A stretch of DNA of 37,238 bases from an uncultured bacterium (GCA_964400565.1 CAYNUP010000045.1:1-37238); one strand, 5' to 3'. Counted from the first letter of the stretch, positions 30,173 to 37,238 are shown. The notes: generated by a model not told the origin, from the sequence alone. Program-made: numbers and translations.

Positions 30173-31243
30173 CTAAATTTCTTTAACAAATTTTGCTATT
30201 AAATCTCCAACCTCACTTGTTGTCATCCCCATTTTTCCCGCTTCAAGCGATTTTATATGACCTTCTGATAACGCCTTAACAATTGATTTTTCTATTAACT
30301 CTGCTGCTTTTTTCTCTCCAAGAATTTCAAACATCATGCCACCTGCTGAAATTGTTGCAAGAGGACATGCTATATTTTTTCCAGCATACTTTGGTGCAGA
30401 ACCATGAATTGGCTCAAACATACTTACTCCTTCAGGATTTATATTTCCTCCCGCTGCTATCCCAAGACCTCCTTGAGTTATTGCTCCAAGGTCAGTAATT
30501 ATATCTCCAAACATATTATTTGTTACAATTACATCAAACCATTCCGGATTTTTAACCATCCACATACATGTAGCATCAACAAAAGCAAAATCAAGTTTTA
30601 TATCAGGGAATTCTTTCCAAACTTCATTAGCAGTTCTTCTCCATAAATCACCTTCATATATTAAAACATTTGCTTTATCAACGACTGTTAAAGATTTCTT
30701 TTTGTTTCTTTCCCTTGCAAGTTTAAATGCATATCTTATACATCTTTCAACTCCTTTTCTTGTATTTATTGATAATTGAGTTGCCACTTCATCTGATGTT
30801 CCTTTTTTAAAATTCCCTCCAATTCCACAATAAAGTCCTTCTGTATTTTCCCTCACGACTACATAATCAATCTCTTCCGGACCCTTATTTTTCAACGGAC
30901 AATCCACCCCTGGATACAATTTTACAGGTCTTAAATTTATATACTGGTCAAGTTCAAATCTAATTTTAAGTAAAATACCTTTTTCAAGAATACCTGGTGG
31001 AACATCAGGATGGCCAACTGCTCCAAGATAAATTGCATCAAGTTTTTTAAATTCCTCAATTGCACTGTCAGGTAATGTTTCTCCTGTTTTTAAATATCTT
31101 TCACCCCCAAAATCATATTCAATAAATTCAATTTTAAAATCAAATCTTTCACTTACTGCTTTTAAAACTTTAATCCCTTCCCTTATAATTTCAGGCCCTA
31201 TTCCATCTCCACCAATTACACCAATTTTATATAATCTTCCCAT
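30173..31243 (-). CDS. 3-isopropylmalate / tartrate (D-malate) dehydrogenase-family enzyme
   Basis: 356 aa. Motifs GGDGIGPE, FELDQYINLRPVKLYPGV.CPL, VVRENTEGLY, NMFGDIITD and HGSAPKYAGKNIA. From memory, the block pattern looks close to E. coli DmlA/TtuC-type enzymes. Confidence 0.85.
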   Translation of the reverse strand: MGRLYKIGVIGGDGIGPEIIREGIKVLKAVSERFDFKIEFIEYDFGGERYLKTGETLPDSAIEEFKKLDAIYLGAVGHPDVPPGILEKGILLKIRFELDQYINLRPVKLYPGVDCPLKNKGPEEIDYVVVRENTEGLYCGIGGNFKKGTSDEVATQLSINTRKGVERCIRYAFKLARERNKKKSLTVVDKANVLIYEGDLWRRTANEVWKEFPDIKLDFAFVDATCMWMVKNPEWFDVIVTNNMFGDIITDLGAITQGGLGIAAGGNINPEGVSMFEPIHGSAPKYAGKNIACPLATISAGGMMFEILGEKKAAELIEKSIVKALSEGHIKSLEAGKMGMTTSEVGDLIAKFVKEI

Positions 31244-31258: not shown

Positions 31259-32542
31259 TTAAGATATAAGATCTTTATAATGCTCTGAAATTTCAAATAT
31301 TCCACCACTTAATTTATAAAATTCTTCATCAAGATTAAAAATACCTTTTTCCGGAGAAATCCATTTTTTCCCATAATAGGGATGATACTTTAAAAGATTT
31401 TCCCAGTTTTTATAATATTGGAACCCATTTGATTCAACTATTGGAATCTTCAATTCTGGAAATGTTTTTATACCCGATGAGAAAATTTTATTCCACTCAA
31501 CAAGTATAGGTATTACTGTCAAATCAGCACAAAAATAATCCATATTTCTTTTTTCTGCTTCATTTAATATTTTTAAAGTCATACTTAATGTTTTTGCAAT
31601 TGGTTTTAATGCAACTCCTTTATATCCCATCTGACTTCTTTCAATAACATTTTTATCTGTATGAGCACTTTCATCTGCAACAATTCTTACAGGTAAATCG
31701 CTCACATCCACCTCAAGTTCCTCAGGAAATGGCTCTTCTATTATAATCACATGCTCCAAAGCACCGATTTTATCAATAAAATCAATAAGTCTTTCTAATC
31801 TATCCTTTGAATCATATCTTCCATTTGCATCAAAATAATATGGTAATTTCCCATTTTTTGTATAAGGTGTATGATAATCCTTAAATTTTTCATGTATGCT
31901 TTTAATTCTTTCCATATCCCACTTAAGCATTTTTTCTCTATCTCCATCGTTGTCAGGGTCAGAACCAATTTTAATCTTTAAAACAAAAAAACCATCTTTT
32001 ACCATTTTTTCTATTTCATCTATTGAAACAGCGTAAGAAATTAAAGGAATACAGGCAATTTTGTTGTGTCTATATTTAAACATCTCTTTATATTGTTCAG
32101 GAATCATTTCAAAAAAGTTCAATTTATTATTTTCTTTTGCATATAAAACCCATAGAGCATTATCAATTGAAACAAGCGAATTTAATGTAAATGTCTCTCT
32201 TAAATCATCTCTTCCTGTTATTTTTTTTGCATAATTATGAACATCATGAAAAATTTCTTCAAGTATTTCTATTGGATTTTTTATTTCCATTCTTTTAAGT
32301 AATTTTAAAGTATGTTGAGTAACTGCAAACATTAGGCAATTTCCACCCACTTCACTATTTTCAGCAAAAACATTGCTGTCAGACCACAAAACACTTTGAG
32401 TCCCAAGACCTATTGAAAAATTATTTTCACTTTTTAGATATGTTATTATCTGCCATGCACCAGTTAAAAATTTCCCTTTAAATCCTAAGGGTTTTTTAAA
32501 ACTTTCAATTTCAAAATTTAAATTTGTATCAATTATTTTCAT
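31259..32542 (-). CDS. Divergent enolase-superfamily (mandelate racemase/muconate lactonising-like) enzyme
   Basis: 427 aa. Barrel-like pattern LKIKIG (KxK), YFDANG (D), IIEEPF (E) and IVADES (D). ATGA overlap with the upstream leuD-like gene. Confidence 0.6.
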   Translation of the reverse strand: MKIIDTNLNFEIESFKKPLGFKGKFLTGAWQIITYLKSENNFSIGLGTQSVLWSDSNVFAENSEVGGNCLMFAVTQHTLKLLKRMEIKNPIEILEEIFHDVHNYAKKITGRDDLRETFTLNSLVSIDNALWVLYAKENNKLNFFEMIPEQYKEMFKYRHNKIACIPLISYAVSIDEIEKMVKDGFFVLKIKIGSDPDNDGDREKMLKWDMERIKSIHEKFKDYHTPYTKNGKLPYYFDANGRYDSKDRLERLIDFIDKIGALEHVIIIEEPFPEELEVDVSDLPVRIVADESAHTDKNVIERSQMGYKGVALKPIAKTLSMTLKILNEAEKRNMDYFCADLTVIPILVEWNKIFSSGIKTFPELKIPIVESNGFQYYKNWENLLKYHPYYGKKWISPEKGIFNLDEEFYKLSGGIFEISEHYKDLIS

Positions 32543-33036
32543 TCATTCTCCTTTATATATTTTTTAGCAAGAGCCATAAGACCCCCTGCATTTATTATGT
32601 TTTGCAAAAAATCAGGATATTTTTGAAATTTATATTTTTTACCCGTTGCTAAATTTACAATTTCCCCTTTTTCAAAATCAACTTCAAGCACATCTTTCTC
32701 ATTTATTTCATCTGTTTCTTTAAGTTCAATTAAAGGAAGCCCTATATTTATTGAATTTCTGAAAAATATTCTCGCAAAACTTTTAGCAATAACAACAGAA
32801 ACACTGCAACTTTTAATTGACATAGGTGCATGTTCTCTACTACTTCCACATCCAAAATTTTCACCCGCAACAATTATATCTCCTTTTTTAACATTTTTTG
32901 AAAATTCTGGTCTTATAGTTTCAAAACAGTGAGATGCAAGTTCTCTTTCATCAGTTGTATTTAAATATCTTGCTGCAATTATATCATCTGTATTTATATT
33001 GTCTTTAAATTTCCAGACCTTTCCTTTTATTTTCAT
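32539..33036 (-). CDS. Aconitase-family small subunit (LeuD/HacB-like), copy 2
   Basis: 165 aa. Motifs [31 protein letters not shown] and [23 protein letters not shown]. Confidence 0.85.
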
Positions 33037-33045
33037 TTTATTCTC

Positions 33046-34062
33046 CTATTTACACCATAATTTACAATATTTTTCCATTGACTTTATTACCTGTCCTATA
33101 TTTTCTACTGGTGTTCCAGGATATGCACCATATATAAGTAAAAGCCCTCCTTTTTCTAAACCAAGTTTTTCAATACATTTTTTTATATGTTCGTCTATGT
33201 CTTCAGGTTTGCCAAAAACTGTTATTTTCTGTCTGTCAATATCAAGGTCTATCGTTATTTTCCCTTTTGCCAATCTTTCAATATTATCTAACCCATTTAC
33301 AAGGTCCTGAGGATTTAAAATTGTAACACCTGTCTCAATAAGGTCTGGAATAATATCAACAATATATCCATCTGTATGTAAAAAAACTTCAATATTCTTT
33401 TTTCTACATACAGAAAATATTTCTTTATAGGATGGTTTTATTAATTCTCTCCATGCTTCTGGTCTTATTGGAAGTGAGTTTTGATGTCCAAGGTCATCTC
33501 CAAAATAAATAACATCTGGTTCAAATTCAACAAGTTTTTTTATAACAATCTTCCAGTATTCAGTTAAAATCTCTATAAGTTTTTTCAGTCTTGGTTCTCT
33601 CAATCCAACATCAATCATAAAATTTTCAAAACCCCTTAAATATGTAAGTCGTAAATAAAAAAATCCATGTTCAACACCCGCACCTGAAAATAAACCATCT
33701 TTTTTTTCTTTTTCTATCCTATTTTTTTCTTCTTCCCAGTTTCTGTTTTTTAATGGGTCTGGTGGAATATATGAATCAAAAAAATCCCATGATGAAAGAG
33801 GATGTTTTACTACCTGACCGCTAAGATAATTACCAGGATAATGCCATAAACAACCCCACTCATCTTCTTTAAAATTTTCTTTTTCTCTTTCAGGATTTCT
33901 ACTCACACCAACTTCTACATTTTTACATTCTTTTTTTATATTTTCAAAATATTCAACATTTTCATCCCATATTTTCCCATTAATTGATACTCTACATGGT
34001 ACAAATCCGCAACCTTCTCTTCTTATTATTTTTAAAAAATTTTCTCTCTTTTTCCAATTCAT
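33046..34062 (-). CDS. Uroporphyrinogen decarboxylase (URO-D)/MtaA-CmuA-like family protein
   Basis: URO-D-like blocks FGDDLGHQNSLPIRPEAWRE, LHTDGYIVDIIPDLIETGVTILNPQD. I start it at ATG 34062 (MNWKK...), which has an AGGAGG SD 6 nt upstream and an ATGA overlap with the preceding ORF. The track start at 34086 adds 8 aa. Confidence 0.7.
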   Translation of the reverse strand: MNWKKRENFLKIIRREGCGFVPCRVSINGKIWDENVEYFENIKKECKNVEVGVSRNPEREKENFKEDEWGCLWHYPGNYLSGQVVKHPLSSWDFFDSYIPPDPLKNRNWEEEKNRIEKEKKDGLFSGAGVEHGFFYLRLTYLRGFENFMIDVGLREPRLKKLIEILTEYWKIVIKKLVEFEPDVIYFGDDLGHQNSLPIRPEAWRELIKPSYKEIFSVCRKKNIEVFLHTDGYIVDIIPDLIETGVTILNPQDLVNGLDNIERLAKGKITIDLDIDRQKITVFGKPEDIDEHIKKCIEKLGLEKGGLLLIYGAYPGTPVENIGQVIKSMEKYCKLWCK

Positions 34063-34640
34063 TTTACACCTCCTATATTTCTCCATGTTGCTTTTTGAAT
34101 AACAGAAAATCTATCTTTTACTCCAAAATCTTTAAAAAGTTGTTCTGTATATGTTCCTTCTGGATAATTTGTTTTTTCCTGAAGGTAAATTAATTCAGTC
34201 ACAACCATTAAAAATTCTACTGAAAATTCTCCTACATTATCCAATTCTTTAAATTCTTCTACATATTTAGGTTCAAAATATTGTAATTTGGGAGGAAATT
34301 CTTTTACCGGTGTAATAGATTTAAACATTTTCAAAAAGTATTCTTTTAATTTTAAAGTAAGTTGAGGGGAATATGCATACTTTACATACATCTCTATAAT
34401 TATATGAATATGCTTTGGAGTTCTTTCTCTTCTCCCGGGTTCTTTATACCTTACAATAAAATCATAGGGAGATTGTGATTTTTTACCAGGATAAACTAAA
34501 ATTTGAATATTATTTTTTGTTGTATAAATCAAGTCATCAGCAACTAATTTTCTAACTTGCTTCACTCTTTTTGTACAAATTATGTAATAAAAAACACTTA
34601 CAAAAAAATTAATTATTCTCAGCATTTTTTTCAAAAACAA
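34059..34640 (-). CDS. Orphan protein (about 190 aa) coupled to the methyltransferase; function unknown, candidate nuclease/effector
   Basis: Open frame overlapping the MTase stop, with an ATGA overlap onto the UroD-like start. The track start at 34640 is a TTG; alternative starts are ATG 34625 or a later GTG. I recognise no catalytic motif. Confidence 0.5.
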   Translation of the reverse strand: MFLKKMLRIINFFVSVFYYIICTKRVKQVRKLVADDLIYTTKNNIQILVYPGKKSQSPYDFIVRYKEPGRRERTPKHIHIIIEMYVKYAYSPQLTLKLKEYFLKMFKSITPVKEFPPKLQYFEPKYVEEFKELDNVGEFSVEFLMVVTELIYLQEKTNYPEGTYTEQLFKDFGVKDRFSVIQKATWRNIGGVK

Positions 34641-36102
34641 GTATGTATGAATGAACTATCTTAAAATTTTTTAGAATATTTGTAAACTCTTCATTTCCAT
34701 AGAAAGAAGCAATGATAATTTCCTTCAATTTTAAAAATGGAAATTCTTTTTCAAAGTTAATCACAATTTCTTTACCAGTAGGGAAAATACCAGTTGTTGT
34801 TCTAATATCTTTGGTATGCACTACAACATATCCTTTCTCTTTCAAATTAGTACTTTCTTGAGAAATTTTTTGAAGTAAAAAATTAAAAAAATCTTGCTCC
34901 TTTATTTCTTCTGAAAGAATTTTAATATAAAGAAGAGATATTTTCCCATTTTTAAGTTTTTTAGAGATATTAAGAATTACCTGATTATTGGGGAAAAGAC
35001 AAAAAATGGAATAAAGTTTATCAGGTGCATATCTTTCAATTATGTTTTTATTCAAATTTTCTTCAAATTTCTCTTTTGGGAAAATCCATAAAGTAGTAGT
35101 TTCTAATGATGACAATTTCTTTTTGACTTTTAATTTAAAGTTTGTTAAATAACTTTCAGAAGTTTCCATTATTATTTCTTTTTCTATTAAACACTTTGAA
35201 AATGGTTTTTCAAAAATTGGCAAATATTCATGTGCAAGAAGTAAAAAGTTATATTTAAGACTTTTTTCATACCAGAAACCTGTTGTTTTACAATTATGTT
35301 GTCTTTTAATAATCAAATCTTTCAATAAAAATCCTTCTTTCTGAAAAATATCTATTACTTTAAATCCTAAAGGAATTATATATTTTTTCTTTCTCAAATC
35401 ACCAATTAAAAAAACACACTTTTTCCCTGGTTTTAAAACTCTAAAAAATTCTTTCGCAACTTTTTTTATTTCTAAAAGAAATTCCTCTATATTTAACCAT
35501 GACAAATCGCCTTCTTTTTTATTAGTATAGTGGATGGCATTGGCATATGGGGGATGAGTACAAATTAGGTCTATTGAATTATCCTCTATAAACCAAAGAT
35601 TTCTTGTATCTCCAACTTTTATTTCAGGTTCATATATAGGAAAAAGTCCATCTATTTCAAATTCTAAATTTCTTTTTGTAAGTTCAACTGCTTTTTCATT
35701 TATATCAATTCCTATGCATTTTCTCCCAAGTAATTTTGCTTCAATACAAGTAGTCCCTCCTCCACAGAAAGGATCTAAAATGGTATCACCAGGAAAAGAA
35801 TATCTCAAAATTATATTACGGGGAATATAAGGAGACCAATTCCCTCTATATTCTCCTGAATGTGTAGCCCAATTGCCCCTATTTTTGAAACTCCAAACAG
35901 TTGTATTTTCTATTTTAAACTTATTAGGATAGATTTTTTTAATTTTCTTCTTCTTCAGATTACTTAAAGCAATTCCATAAAATTTTCTGAGAACTCCCTC
36001 AATAAACCTATAACTCACTTTATATTTCTCTCCTATTTCAAAATCTGAAACTCCTTTCAGTTTCTCTTCAATTATTTTTTCTTCAATACCTTCTTTATTC
36101 AT
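34609..36102 (-). CDS. HTH-fused amino-methyltransferase (N6A/N4C DNA MTase-like) with a C-terminal degenerate duplicate of the MTase fold
   Basis: Motif [12 protein letters not shown] (35749-35775) is preceded by TVWSF...[18 protein letters not shown]. Motif IV reads THPPY (35545-35559), followed by [12 protein letters not shown]. The N-terminus has an HTH-like [25 protein letters not shown] start it at ATG 36102, which has a GGAGG SD and an ATGA overlap with the leuC-like stop, rather than at track ATG 36123. Confidence 0.8.
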
Positions 36103-37238
36103 ACAACCTCCTCTGGATGACATATTTTACCTTTTATACTGCTTGCTGCTGCTACTTCTGGATTGGACAGATATACATAACTTTCTGGATGTCCCATTCT
36201 TCCTATAAAATTTCTGTTTGTTGTTGCTATTGCTACTTCTCCTTTTGCTAATACTCCCATGTGCCCCCCAAGACAGGGACCACATGTTGGAGGAGAAATT
36301 ACACATCCTGCTTCAATAAATATATCAATCAAACCTTCCTTCAATGCCATTTTATAAACTTTTTGTGTTGCTGGAATTATTATACATCTAACCTCTGGAT
36401 AAACCTTTTTACCCTTTAATATTTTCGCTGCCTTCCTTAAATCACTTATTCTACCATTTGTGCATGAACCAATAACAACCTGATCAATTTTAACATTTTC
36501 ATATTCCCTTACACTTTTTGAATTACTTGGAAGATGAGGAGCAGCAATTTGTGGTTCAATTTTACTTACATCTATCTCAATTATTTTTTCATAGTCATTT
36601 TCACTATCTGTTTTTAAATTTTTATCAATTTTGATATCCTTACCCATTTCCTTAAAATATTCTTCAGTAATTCTATCTGGTTTTATTATTCCATTTTTTG
36701 CTCCTGCTTCAATTGCCATATTACAGATTGTAAATCTATCATCAATTGTTAAATTTTCAATAACAGGTCCTGTAAATTCCATACTTTTATAATTTGCTCC
36801 ATCAACTCCAATTTTTCCAATAGTATATAAAATCAAATCCTTCCCGCTTACATATTCATTTAATTTCCCATAATAATAAAATTTAATTGTTGAAGGTACT
36901 TTAAACCATAATTTACCTGTAATCATTGCATAAGCAGTATCTGTGCTTCCAACTCCTGTTGAAAAACAACCAACTGCTCCATAAGTACATGTATGACTAT
37001 CTGCTCCTATTATTAGTTGACCCGGCAAAGTTAATCCTTCTTCTGGCAAAAGAGCATGTTCAATTCCAACTTTACCTATTTCATAAAATTTAACTCCATA
37101 TTTTTTTGAAAACTCCCTTAATTTTTTTACAAGTTCAGCACTTTTTATATCCTTGCATGGAGTAAAATGGTCTGGAACAAGAACAATTTTTTCAGGATTA
37201 AAAACTTTTTTAGCACCAACTTTTTCAAATTCTTCAAT
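36099..37238 (-). CDS. Aconitase-family large subunit (LeuC/HacA-like); N-terminus beyond the window end
   Basis: The frame stays open to the window edge: own translation of 37238->37050 gives [30 protein letters not shown]...[11 protein letters not shown]. Motifs GADSHT, GSCTNGR and [10 protein letters not shown] (Fe-S ligands). Confidence 0.9.

Follow-up and report, generated by a model that had tools for sequence, protein, structure and literature searches.

Operon-like gene clusters are among the documented insertion sites of restriction-modification (RM) units (PMC2993543; PMC2853133). Here, we analyse a candidate for such a unit in a 37,238-nt stretch of DNA from an uncultured bacterium (GCA_964400565.1, CAYNUP010000045.1:1-37238; hereafter, the window, meaning this stretch at its full length), where the genes for a 497-aa methyltransferase (MTase) and a 188-aa partner, which we call p188, lie between leuC and leuD. 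The MTase–p188 pair is an accessory unit wedged between these two genes and is most probably an RM-type mobile module directed at GATC.

The closest described systems are the mobile Type II RM pairs, known from the comparisons of the Kobayashi group and exemplified by PabI of Pyrococcus abyssi. R.PabI, the product of an unrecognisable open reading frame (ORF) beside an inserted MTase gene, was reportedly later shown to be a restriction enzyme of a new fold. Like the mobile pairs, the cassette described here consists of an MTase gene and one small ORF with no recombinase, displays presence/absence polymorphism and is inserted into a co-directional gene cluster; as in PabI-type pairs, the partner is unrecognisable by sequence and its predicted fold has no match. 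Unlike in those systems, cleavage by the partner is only proposed, no long target duplication is present at the cassette, and the junctions are exact stop/start overlaps, so that the cassette depends on host transcription and translation. Furthermore, the p188 family is also found beside established GATC nucleases, which is atypical of a sole restriction enzyme.

A second point of reference is provided by the DpnII/MboI-type systems, which combine a D12 MTase, a DpnA-like beta-class MTase and a PF04556 nuclease. GATC is the target of the classical D12, DpnA-like, DpnII and MutH enzymes and, to our knowledge, classical DpnII/MboI cassettes contain no p188-like gene. The likeness to the window pair lies in its putative GATC target, in the p188 relatives embedded in such clusters (loci L109–L112 of our comparison set) and in the cassette-type MTases that adjoin DpnII in two loci (L089 and L027). 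The window itself, by contrast, holds no DpnII or MutH-like gene, and its MTase represents a third architecture, composed of a helix-turn-helix (HTH), a permuted core and a pseudo-domain.

With beta-class MTases, such as TTHA0409 (PDB 2zie), M.MboIIA and CcrM, the cassette enzyme shares the Pfam family, the S-adenosylmethionine (SAM) motif and the PPY catalytic loop, but differs from them in its permuted order (motif I, then IV), in carrying HPPY rather than (D/N/S)PPY, in the added HTH and in the fused degenerate copy. Many beta-class MTases act as dimers, an arrangement that the tandem active and inactive domains of the cassette MTase could mimic. Finally, the vsr gene overlaps the 3′ end of dcm; likewise, in the cassette, the small p188 gene begins inside the 3′ end of the MTase gene and is probably co-transcribed with it. 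Unlike Vsr and Dcm, however, p188 displays no similarity to Vsr in sequence or fold, the MTase is a predicted amino-MTase rather than an m5C enzyme, and the pair is mobile and patchy in its distribution.

Organization of the locus

The genes at the end of the window all lie on the minus strand, in the order leuC, MTase, p188, UroD-like gene, leuD, enolase-superfamily gene and leuB. The 3′ part of leuC, which encodes the large subunit of 3-isopropylmalate dehydratase, occupies positions 36099..37238 and runs off the window end (PF00330, 7e-102; NCBIfam TIGR02083 LEU2, 621 bits against a cut-off of 610.65). Its TGA (36099-36101) overlaps the ATG (36102-36100) of the MTase gene (34609..36102), and this upstream junction (36099..36113) comprises a GAGGAGG Shine–Dalgarno (SD) motif at 36107-36113 and the ATGA at 36099-36102. 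Although the ORF listing offers an alternative start 7 codons upstream, the position of the SD motif and the homologue alignments favour ATG 36102, which yields the 497-aa protein. The MTase stop codon, TAA 34609-34611, lies 17 nt inside the p188 gene (34059..34625) counted from ATG 34625. Two starts are possible for the p188 ORF, namely TTG 34640 (193 aa) and ATG 34625 (188 aa), the latter being better supported by the homologue alignment. At the downstream junction (34059..34074), AGGAGGTG provides the SD motif (34067-34074), and the p188 TGA (34059-34061) overlaps the ATG of the UroD-like gene at 34062, again within an ATGA (34059-34062).

An earlier sequence-only reading of the window had pointed to both ATGA overlaps with their SD motifs, which proved exact on re-reading, and to an overlap of the MTase 3′ end with the next ORF, which amounts to 17 nt if ATG 34625 is used. 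It had also described that ORF as encoding 193 aa; the frame from TTG 34640 does exist, but alignment with the homologues prefers 188 aa. No terminator-like sites were found within the cassette or at its edges by a terminator scan, and the promoter-like matches returned by a promoter scan of the cassette were no better than those in shuffled sequence, which makes uninterrupted co-transcription from leuC through the cassette to the downstream genes plausible.

The leuC–leuD gap in related genomes

Searching species-representative genomes with the enolase-superfamily protein yielded 16 loci, all from metagenome-assembled genomes of Ratteibacteria/Omnitrophota, onto which seven window proteins were mapped; further loci were added through p188 searches. 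Among these relatives, the leuC–leuD gap takes five layouts. It is empty in L012, L014 and L022; it contains only the UroD-like gene in L010, L011, L013 and L024, and only the MTase–p188 pair in L001–L003; the pair precedes the UroD-like gene in the window, with L031 displaying the p188–UroD part of this layout; and the UroD-like gene precedes the pair in L114. In the empty sites of L012 and L014, leuC is joined to leuD by ATGA. L022 has no cassette either, but retains ATGAAAAAAGAAAACATTGAAAGGGAAA, which corresponds to the initial 28 nt of the MTase gene in L003 and is joined directly to the start of leuD (L022:6590-6660). This genome belongs to the same species-level group as L001 and L003 (leuC 97–98% and leuB 100% identical), and AGGGAAA is present at both breakpoints in L003 (L003:2160-2200 and L003:4190-4230); the L022 sequence is therefore a microhomology deletion scar. 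The scar forms a 10-codon mini-ORF, the TGA of which overlaps the leuD ATG, so that stop/start coupling was restored after the deletion. The closest relative of the window, L024 (leuC 95% identical), also lacks the cassette.

The empty ATGA-coupled sites and the deletion scar bear out the earlier suggestion that the pair is accessory to the leuC–leuD gap. Relatives do not uniformly carry it in this place: some do, which goes part of the way towards the ancestral-member outcome named in the sequence-only reading, but others, including L024, are devoid of it. Where present, the cassette has diverged considerably. The MTase and p188 are 67% and 77% identical, respectively, between the window and L001, and 62% and 67% identical between the window and L114, with leuC at 88–90% and leuB at 82–84% in the same two comparisons; over all same-gap cassettes of relatives, whose leuC/leuB proteins are about 80–88% identical, identity to the window is 58–67% for the MTase and 67–77% for p188. 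Given that relatives carry a diverged copy in the same gap and that the cassette tree has the same shape as the host-protein tree, the cassette is old in this clade rather than a recent arrival. It has nonetheless not remained static: the L031 cassette is 84% identical to that of L114, but displays the gene order of the window, which implies that one of the two, the cassette or the UroD gene, has changed place inside the gap. A SD-spacer-ATGAA pattern is common to all gene junctions, and we suspect that this microhomology mediates the shuffling.

The UroD/MtaA-family gene (338 aa; 33046..34062, minus strand; PF01208, 9e-14), the product of which falls far short of the cut-offs of MtaA-type NCBIfam models, lies outside the methylase cassette. 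It is present in L010, L011, L013, L024, L031 and L114 and absent from L001–L003, L012, L014 and L022. L114 has it on the upstream side of the cassette, whereas in the window and L031 it follows the cassette. Accordingly, this gene, previously taken for a native member of the operon, is a second variable insert of the leuC–leuD gap.

Linkage of the MTase and p188 genes

The linkage of the two genes was assessed in loci from a metagenome scan (80 loci) together with the other loci collected. Of the 79 loci with sequence upstream of the p188 homologue, all 79 carry the MTase gene directly before it on the same strand; another eight, in which no MTase was detected, include under 470 nt of DNA ahead of p188. 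In most cases, the two genes overlap or are separated by at most 36 nt. Their neighbourhoods, however, are unrelated and include thrS, PCC-domain/radical-SAM genes, the his operon and transposase islands, with hosts as diverse as Ratteibacteria, Armatimonadota, Thermotoga, Atribacteria, Archaeoglobaceae and Thermoplasmata. The co-occurrence of the two families, which the sequence-only reading had put forward for examination, thus holds in every informative locus and across many unrelated neighbourhoods, and the combination of tight linkage across unrelated genomes with patchy distribution is one of the features by which Type II RM systems are known. In about 75 of the 79 MTase–p188 loci (~95%), the flanks examined contain no other nuclease.

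Twelve loci carry an extra gene, pA (176–197 aa), between those for the MTase and p188. It encodes a distant p188 paralogue (BLASTP, 3e-5; hhalign, E 2e-4 but only 47% probability), and QE(K/D)xNYPxG is common to both proteins. In Thermodesulfovibrio yellowstonii and Thermatribacter velox, MTase–pA occurs alone, without p188. The T. yellowstonii pair (L026:4280-7927, BSDX01000001.1) is located between hisA-like and hisF-like genes of the His_biosynth family, with gaps of 1 and 21 nt, and this his locus is a second case of embedding in an amino-acid biosynthesis operon; elsewhere, the pair is mostly flanked by intergenic gaps of ordinary size (100–500 nt). The slot between the MTase and p188 genes is occupied in some loci by other small genes, namely one for a 54–65-aa CxxC...CxxC zinc-ribbon protein (L087, L088, L090 and L108) and ORFs without a family of 186–201 aa (L044 and L101) or 85–96 aa (L057 and L099). 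One locus, L075, was considered as a case of a split MTase and rejected: its MTase is intact and the neighbouring gene is a fragment of a beta-class MTase.

The methyltransferase

In a Pfam profile search, the MTase matched PF01555 at 9e-34, and the PADLOC model MTase_II PDLC03376 was matched end to end at 1e-92, covering aa 51–299. An N-terminal HTH is located at approximately aa 9–52, although the match to HTH_28 is weak. Motif I (SAM-binding), DPFCGGGTT (aa 110–118; 35749..35775, minus strand), aligns to motif I of 2zie and is nearly invariant in homologues, whereas motif IV, THPPY (aa 182–186; 35545..35559, minus strand), aligns to SPPY of 2zie. These alignments are swapped: aa 161–237, with THPPY, correspond to residues 24–101 of the 2zie chain, and aa 94–153, with DPFCGGGTT, to residues 225–284. 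The motif order, I before IV, is therefore permuted relative to the beta class, in which motif IV, of the form (D/N/S)PP(Y/F), is followed by the target-recognition region and motif I. HPPY is nearly invariant among MTase homologues. A homologue search gave 2,578 of these; among the 120 listed, which come from many phyla, nearly all are ~500–540 aa long and ~50% identical over nearly the full length. The SAM-binding and catalytic motifs expected of the DNA MTase of a Type II RM system are thus present, albeit in unusual order.

The C-terminal region of the protein (aa 300–497; 34612..35205, minus strand) was modelled with AF2 at a pLDDT of 77. Its best Foldseek matches are class-I MTases, the first of them 2zie (E 2.8e-4, probability 1.00), and BLASTP of the MTase core against its own C-terminal half yields 28% identity over 141 aa (E 0.004); at the position of motif IV, THPPY is replaced by CLFPN. 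The MTase-like fold together with the self-alignment indicates that this domain is a degenerate internal duplicate. A nuclease hidden in the C-terminal 200 aa had also been considered and was rejected on the same grounds.

The Trm11 model TIGR01177 gives 66.9 bits, against a cut-off of 316.55, and no THUMP domain was detected in Pfam and NCBIfam searches, the N-terminus being HTH-like instead. The 497-aa protein is accordingly predicted, from its profile matches and motifs, to be a DNA amino-methyltransferase (N6/N4) and not a housekeeping RNA enzyme. A housekeeping RNA or protein MTase family without a link to the partner, one of the outcomes that would have spoken for an ancestral operon member rather than an insert, is contradicted by the PADLOC match, the low Trm11 score and the linkage in all 79 loci.

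The p188 partner

Neither p188 nor its paralogue pA matched any profile in Pfam, NCBIfam, PADLOC or PHROGs, and no source gave informative names for p188 homologues. These homologues number 526 at 90% clustering and come from both bacteria and archaea; among those listed, identity is ~56–67%, with two closer sequences (77% and 94%), and nearly all are ~175–197 aa long, a single one reaching 228 aa. The mean column identity of the homologue alignment is 59%. At the superfamily level, a HMMER search of 1.84 billion representative proteins recovered 231 clusters at 50% identity. No match was obtained when p188, pA and a phage relative were compared by tblastn with GenBank phages and PLSDB plasmids, and PDB sequence searches with the family and superfamily profiles returned chance matches only (E at least 0.09). 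A 47-column local match to the methyl-CpG-binding domain of MBD3 is not significant (E 2.9) and is not relied on here.

The AF2 model of p188 (pLDDT 90, pTM 0.80) combines a long helix at the N-terminus with a three-stranded sheet and six further helices, and its best match in BFVD, an uncharacterised Streptomyces phage protein (TM 0.45), is not significant. Sequence conservation is concentrated in YPGKK (aa 45–49), D55, KHIHIIIEMYVK (aa 71–82) and QEKTNYPEG (aa 149–157). Across 16 diverse members of the superfamily, G47, D55, K82, E150 and N153 never vary, H72 and Q149 hardly do, and position 78 is acidic (D or E) throughout. This set of acid, acid, lysine and acid residues plus His and Asn looks like a putative active site. 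It does not, however, conform to PD-(D/E)XK nucleases, the core of which has an alpha-beta-beta-beta-alpha-beta topology with D ... (D/E)xK placed on strands 2 and 3, because in the p188 model the acidic-x3-Lys element is on a helix (aa 72–85). The remark of the sequence-only reading that the partner is no recognisable restriction enzyme is upheld by the zero matches in four profile libraries and the lack of a structural match in PDB or BFVD at E<0.001; in this respect, p188 departs from the recognisable adjacent endonuclease of ordinary Type II RM systems.

GATC-type MTases and nucleases beside p188 relatives

In several loci, p188 relatives keep the company of genes that belong to GATC-type systems. 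A DpnII-family gene is adjacent to the HPPY MTase gene in L089 (DpnII-MTase-p188) and L027 (MTase-pA-DpnII), and the first 46 codons of such a gene, matching the beginning of the intact L089 gene at 70% identity, persist upstream of an intact MTase–p188 pair in L074 (L074:3976-4119). Three near-identical viral contigs (L109–L111) and a metagenome contig (L112; 54–67% identical) share a five-gene cluster in the order D12 (Dam-like) MTase, p188 relative, DpnII nuclease (PF04556, 4e-92), beta MTase and pA-like protein, which, judging from the gene order, looks like an MboI-type MTase-nuclease-MTase cassette with a p188-family gene behind each MTase. On these contigs (L109:3799-10307, L110, L111 and L112), the conserved genes also include one for an HSDR_N-like endonuclease ahead of the five and one for a 424-aa protein (replaced by a KAP NTPase in L112) behind them. 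One further contig has a D12 MTase gene followed by that of a p188 relative. On streptococcal-prophage-like contigs that encode Paratox (L116–118), D12 and beta MTase genes face a MutH-like gene, which is followed by the gene for a 341-aa protein with a C-terminal p188 domain. On another contig, a DpnII gene is followed by that of a 160-aa family member (P0250), and in P0364 the p188 domain is fused to a D12 MTase. Yet another member, P0281 (L115:4408-5574), is a p188–TIR fusion (TIR_2, 1.6e-17) that adjoins a 903-aa CHAT-STAND-TPR protein; its 7.3-kb contig carries no MTase gene and contains 0 GATC sites against 23 expected.

Overall, the p188 superfamily accompanies three MTase classes and two nuclease families and, judging from this context, GATC is most likely the methylation target of the HPPY MTase. 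The window itself yielded no DpnII or MutH-like gene in tblastn searches with three DpnII and one MutH-like protein, and thus lacks the DpnII-family or MutH/Sau3AI-type nuclease that forms part of DpnII/MboI cassettes. Literature searches on accessory genes in GATC systems and on the Thermodesulfovibrio methylome returned nothing relevant. The proposal that the locus represents an undescribed MTase-linked system is understated, because the superfamily is tied specifically to GATC-type MTases and nucleases.

GATC is also the most depleted 4-nt palindrome in the cassette loci, with an observed/expected ratio of 0.32 pooled over 89 of them and of 0.17 in the window (13 observed versus 76 expected). 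In the window, AGCT (1 versus 54 expected), CTAG (0 versus 31) and TCGA (3 versus 16.5) are scarce as well, and all four palindromes are avoided clade-wide, with or without the cassette (also in L011, L013, L014, L016–L018, L022 and L024), which suggests that the clade has long been exposed to several 4-cutter restriction systems. Since the depletion is equal without the cassette, GATC avoidance is consistent with a GATC target but not diagnostic of it. Palindrome avoidance, initially considered as a read-out of specificity, was for this reason demoted to a suggestive observation.

Composition of the cassette

The sequence-only reading had taken low GC content as a sign of foreign origin. Its hand counts of five 60-nt lines were correct to the digit (0.200, 0.233 and 0.267 inside the cassette and 0.317 and 0.350 in the flanks), and the contrast with the surroundings, although small, is real: GC is 0.263 in the cassette versus 0.289 in the window, and the cassette ranks 10th lowest among 352 sliding 2,044-nt windows, the range of which is only 0.26–0.32. 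By gene, the MTase (0.262) and p188 (0.263) compare with a mean of 0.288 (sd 0.026) for 38 window genes. GC content at third codon positions (GC3), however, is ordinary (0.173 for the MTase and 0.143 for p188, against 0.168, sd 0.022, for the window genes); the slight shortfall thus stems from the first and second codon positions and reflects amino-acid content, not codon usage. With ordinary GC3, a gene-level deficit of about one sd and relatives that hold the cassette in the same gap, composition was rejected as an indication of foreign origin.

Neighbouring genes

Downstream of the gap, leuD (32539..33036, minus strand) encodes the small subunit of isopropylmalate dehydratase (PF00694, 6e-20; TIGR02084, 236.5 bits, just below the cut-off of 245.85). 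In two of the relatives, a deletion of ~23 nt after the stop codon of the 181-aa p188 homologue (p181), relative to L003, removes the leuD start and first codons (L001:5050-5070 and L002:2400-2425); in both, the tblastn match of leuD begins at residue 9 and a full-length gene was not called. The leuD gene of a genome with this deletion may be inactivated or use another start. In L024 (L024:4020-4075), the leuC frame, read by eye only, is apparently without its usual stop and enters the UroD-like gene for ~10 codons in another frame.

The enolase-superfamily (MR_MLE_C-like) gene (427 aa; 31259..32542, minus strand), located between leuD and leuB, overlaps leuD by 4 nt; relatives among the Ratteibacteria/Omnitrophota carry it at 65–85% identity, but the L114 operon lacks it. 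It is followed by leuB (30173..31243, minus strand), as placed by the gene-order listing of the window. The annotated remainder of the window consists of housekeeping genes (metK, ahcY, rho, PTS enzyme I and others).

Discussion

Our preferred reading, held tentatively and with somewhat less than even confidence, is that the cassette is a compact, self-contained, mobile RM module directed at GATC, in which p188 would act as a methylation-sensitive nuclease of a new fold. We favour a nuclease role because the pair is self-sufficient in ~95% of loci, has spread across domains, keeps a fixed MTase-partner order with overlap and contains invariant residues that look catalytic. In such a module, the N-terminal HTH of the MTase would probably serve autoregulation, whereas its inactive C-terminal domain may be a built-in pseudo-dimer partner. 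The HPPY MTase would methylate GATC, and p188 would read unmethylated GATC DNA and cleave it, as a Type II restriction endonuclease with a candidate active site formed by D55 ... (D/E)78-x3-K82 ... Q149-E150-x2-N153. Apparently without a promoter or terminator of its own at this locus, the cassette would be expressed by read-through and stop/start coupling from leuC and would hand translation on to the next gene. Gain, rearrangement and loss in the gap would proceed by microhomology-mediated events within the Ratteibacteria/Omnitrophota clade.

A number of observations weigh against this reading. The lineage of L022 survived the deletion of the entire cassette. HPPY as a documented variant of motif IV was not found in literature searches. 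Cassette-free relatives are also depleted of GATC, with 1 site versus 58 expected in L016 and 0 versus 35 in L017. Foldseek comparison of the p188 model with PDB and BFVD returned nothing at E<0.001 and no nuclease match and, more generally, no nuclease fold, motif or family was detected in p188 by profile, PDB or structure searches. In L009 and L076, a frameshifted MTase gene lies beside an intact p188 gene; although a sequencing error is possible, this combination is awkward for an active restriction enzyme. The DpnII gene of L074 has decayed while the MTase–p188 pair was retained. In the several lineages where a member of the family occurs alongside a genuine GATC nuclease (DpnII-type or MutH-like), p188 would be at most a second nuclease. 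Finally, the loci with both pA and p188 and the TIR fusion of P0281 fit a sensor or accessory role equally well as a nuclease role.

These points bring to the fore the possibility that the cassette serves GATC methylation and includes no restriction enzyme; the MTase would then be an orphan or the remnant of a DpnII-MTase-p188 unit, and p188 an accessory protein tied to GATC methylation state, whether a reader, a regulator or a guard signalling unmethylated sites. We regard this as a serious possibility, though not a probable one. It would account for the relatives of p188 beside GATC nucleases, whether DpnII (L089, L027, L109–112 and the P0250 contig) or MutH-like (L116–118), for the DpnII stub of L074, where the nuclease was lost and the pair kept, for a p188 without a nuclease fold and for the frameshifted MTases tolerated in L009 and L076. 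The P0281 TIR fusion next to a CHAT-STAND-TPR protein, on a contig free of GATC, likewise resembles a sensor coupled to an effector. This reading is less easily reconciled with the ~75 of 79 loci that contain no other nuclease, in spite of which the pair spreads across phyla at 50–60% identity; such spread is easier to understand for a selfish, complete RM unit. In addition, the invariant D, D/E, K, E, H and N set appears catalytic, not purely DNA-binding, and a reader of 160–190 aa without an output domain has no obvious effector.

A broader proposal combines elements of nuclease and sensor, namely that the p188 superfamily is a new fold that reads the methylation state of GATC, with stand-alone forms attacking unmethylated GATC and fusions signalling to effectors such as TIR, and that it is shared by RM systems, phages and abortive-infection-type defence. 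The window pair would then be its minimal form, spreading between coupled genes of biosynthetic operons. Taken as a whole, this generalization strikes us as rather unlikely.

We also consider it improbable that p188 acts in repair or housekeeping as an enzyme offsetting a side effect of the amino-methyltransferase, as Vsr does with Dcm. The overlap of the p188 gene with the MTase 3′ end recalls vsr–dcm, the association with three unrelated MTase classes points to the modification rather than to one particular enzyme, and the conserved p188 residues appear catalytic. Nevertheless, no lesion specific to GATC amino-methylation is known, the TIR fusion and the defence-type neighbours (KAP NTPase and CHAT-STAND) fit poorly, and p188 bears no similarity to repair folds.

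That the pair has been inherited vertically as an ancestral part of the operon and has a housekeeping role, for instance as a Trm11-like RNA or protein MTase with a cofactor subunit, is very improbable and essentially excluded: although one homologue is named ‘TRM11 family SAM-dependent methyltransferase’ at NCBI, PDB Trm11 chains are collinear with MTase aa 100–231, relatives hold the pair in the same gap with a tree congruent with that of the host, and GC3 is like that of the host, this explanation is at odds with the empty ATGA-coupled sites, the cassette-free L024 and the L022 scar, with the unrelated contexts of the pair in many phyla, including archaea, with the TIGR01177 score of 67 bits against 317 and the lack of a THUMP domain, with the PADLOC Type II MTase match at 1e-92 and with the DpnII genes that adjoin the pair in some loci.

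Concluding remarks

Three aspects of the locus are new: the partner superfamily and its fold, relative to the libraries and structure sets searched; the MTase architecture, with its HTH, permuted HPPY core and pseudo-domain; and the exact stop/start splicing at coupled junctions, seen in a series of empty, filled, rearranged and scarred gaps. The p188 family is widespread but absent from the searched releases of Pfam, NCBIfam, PADLOC and PHROGs, and annotators built on these therefore miss it. Should p188 cleave unmethylated GATC, it would add a new catalytic fold to the restriction enzymes and a compact GATC enzyme present in many metagenome-derived lineages, including the thermophile-associated Thermotoga and Archaeoglobaceae. 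Should it instead be a reader, it would represent a prokaryotic sensor of methylation state reused with three MTase classes, two nuclease families and a TIR effector, and hence a new building block of defence. As for the host clade, the operon-gap series illustrates how an apparently promoterless cassette lives in an essential operon by means of exact stop/start coupling and is lost by microhomology deletion.

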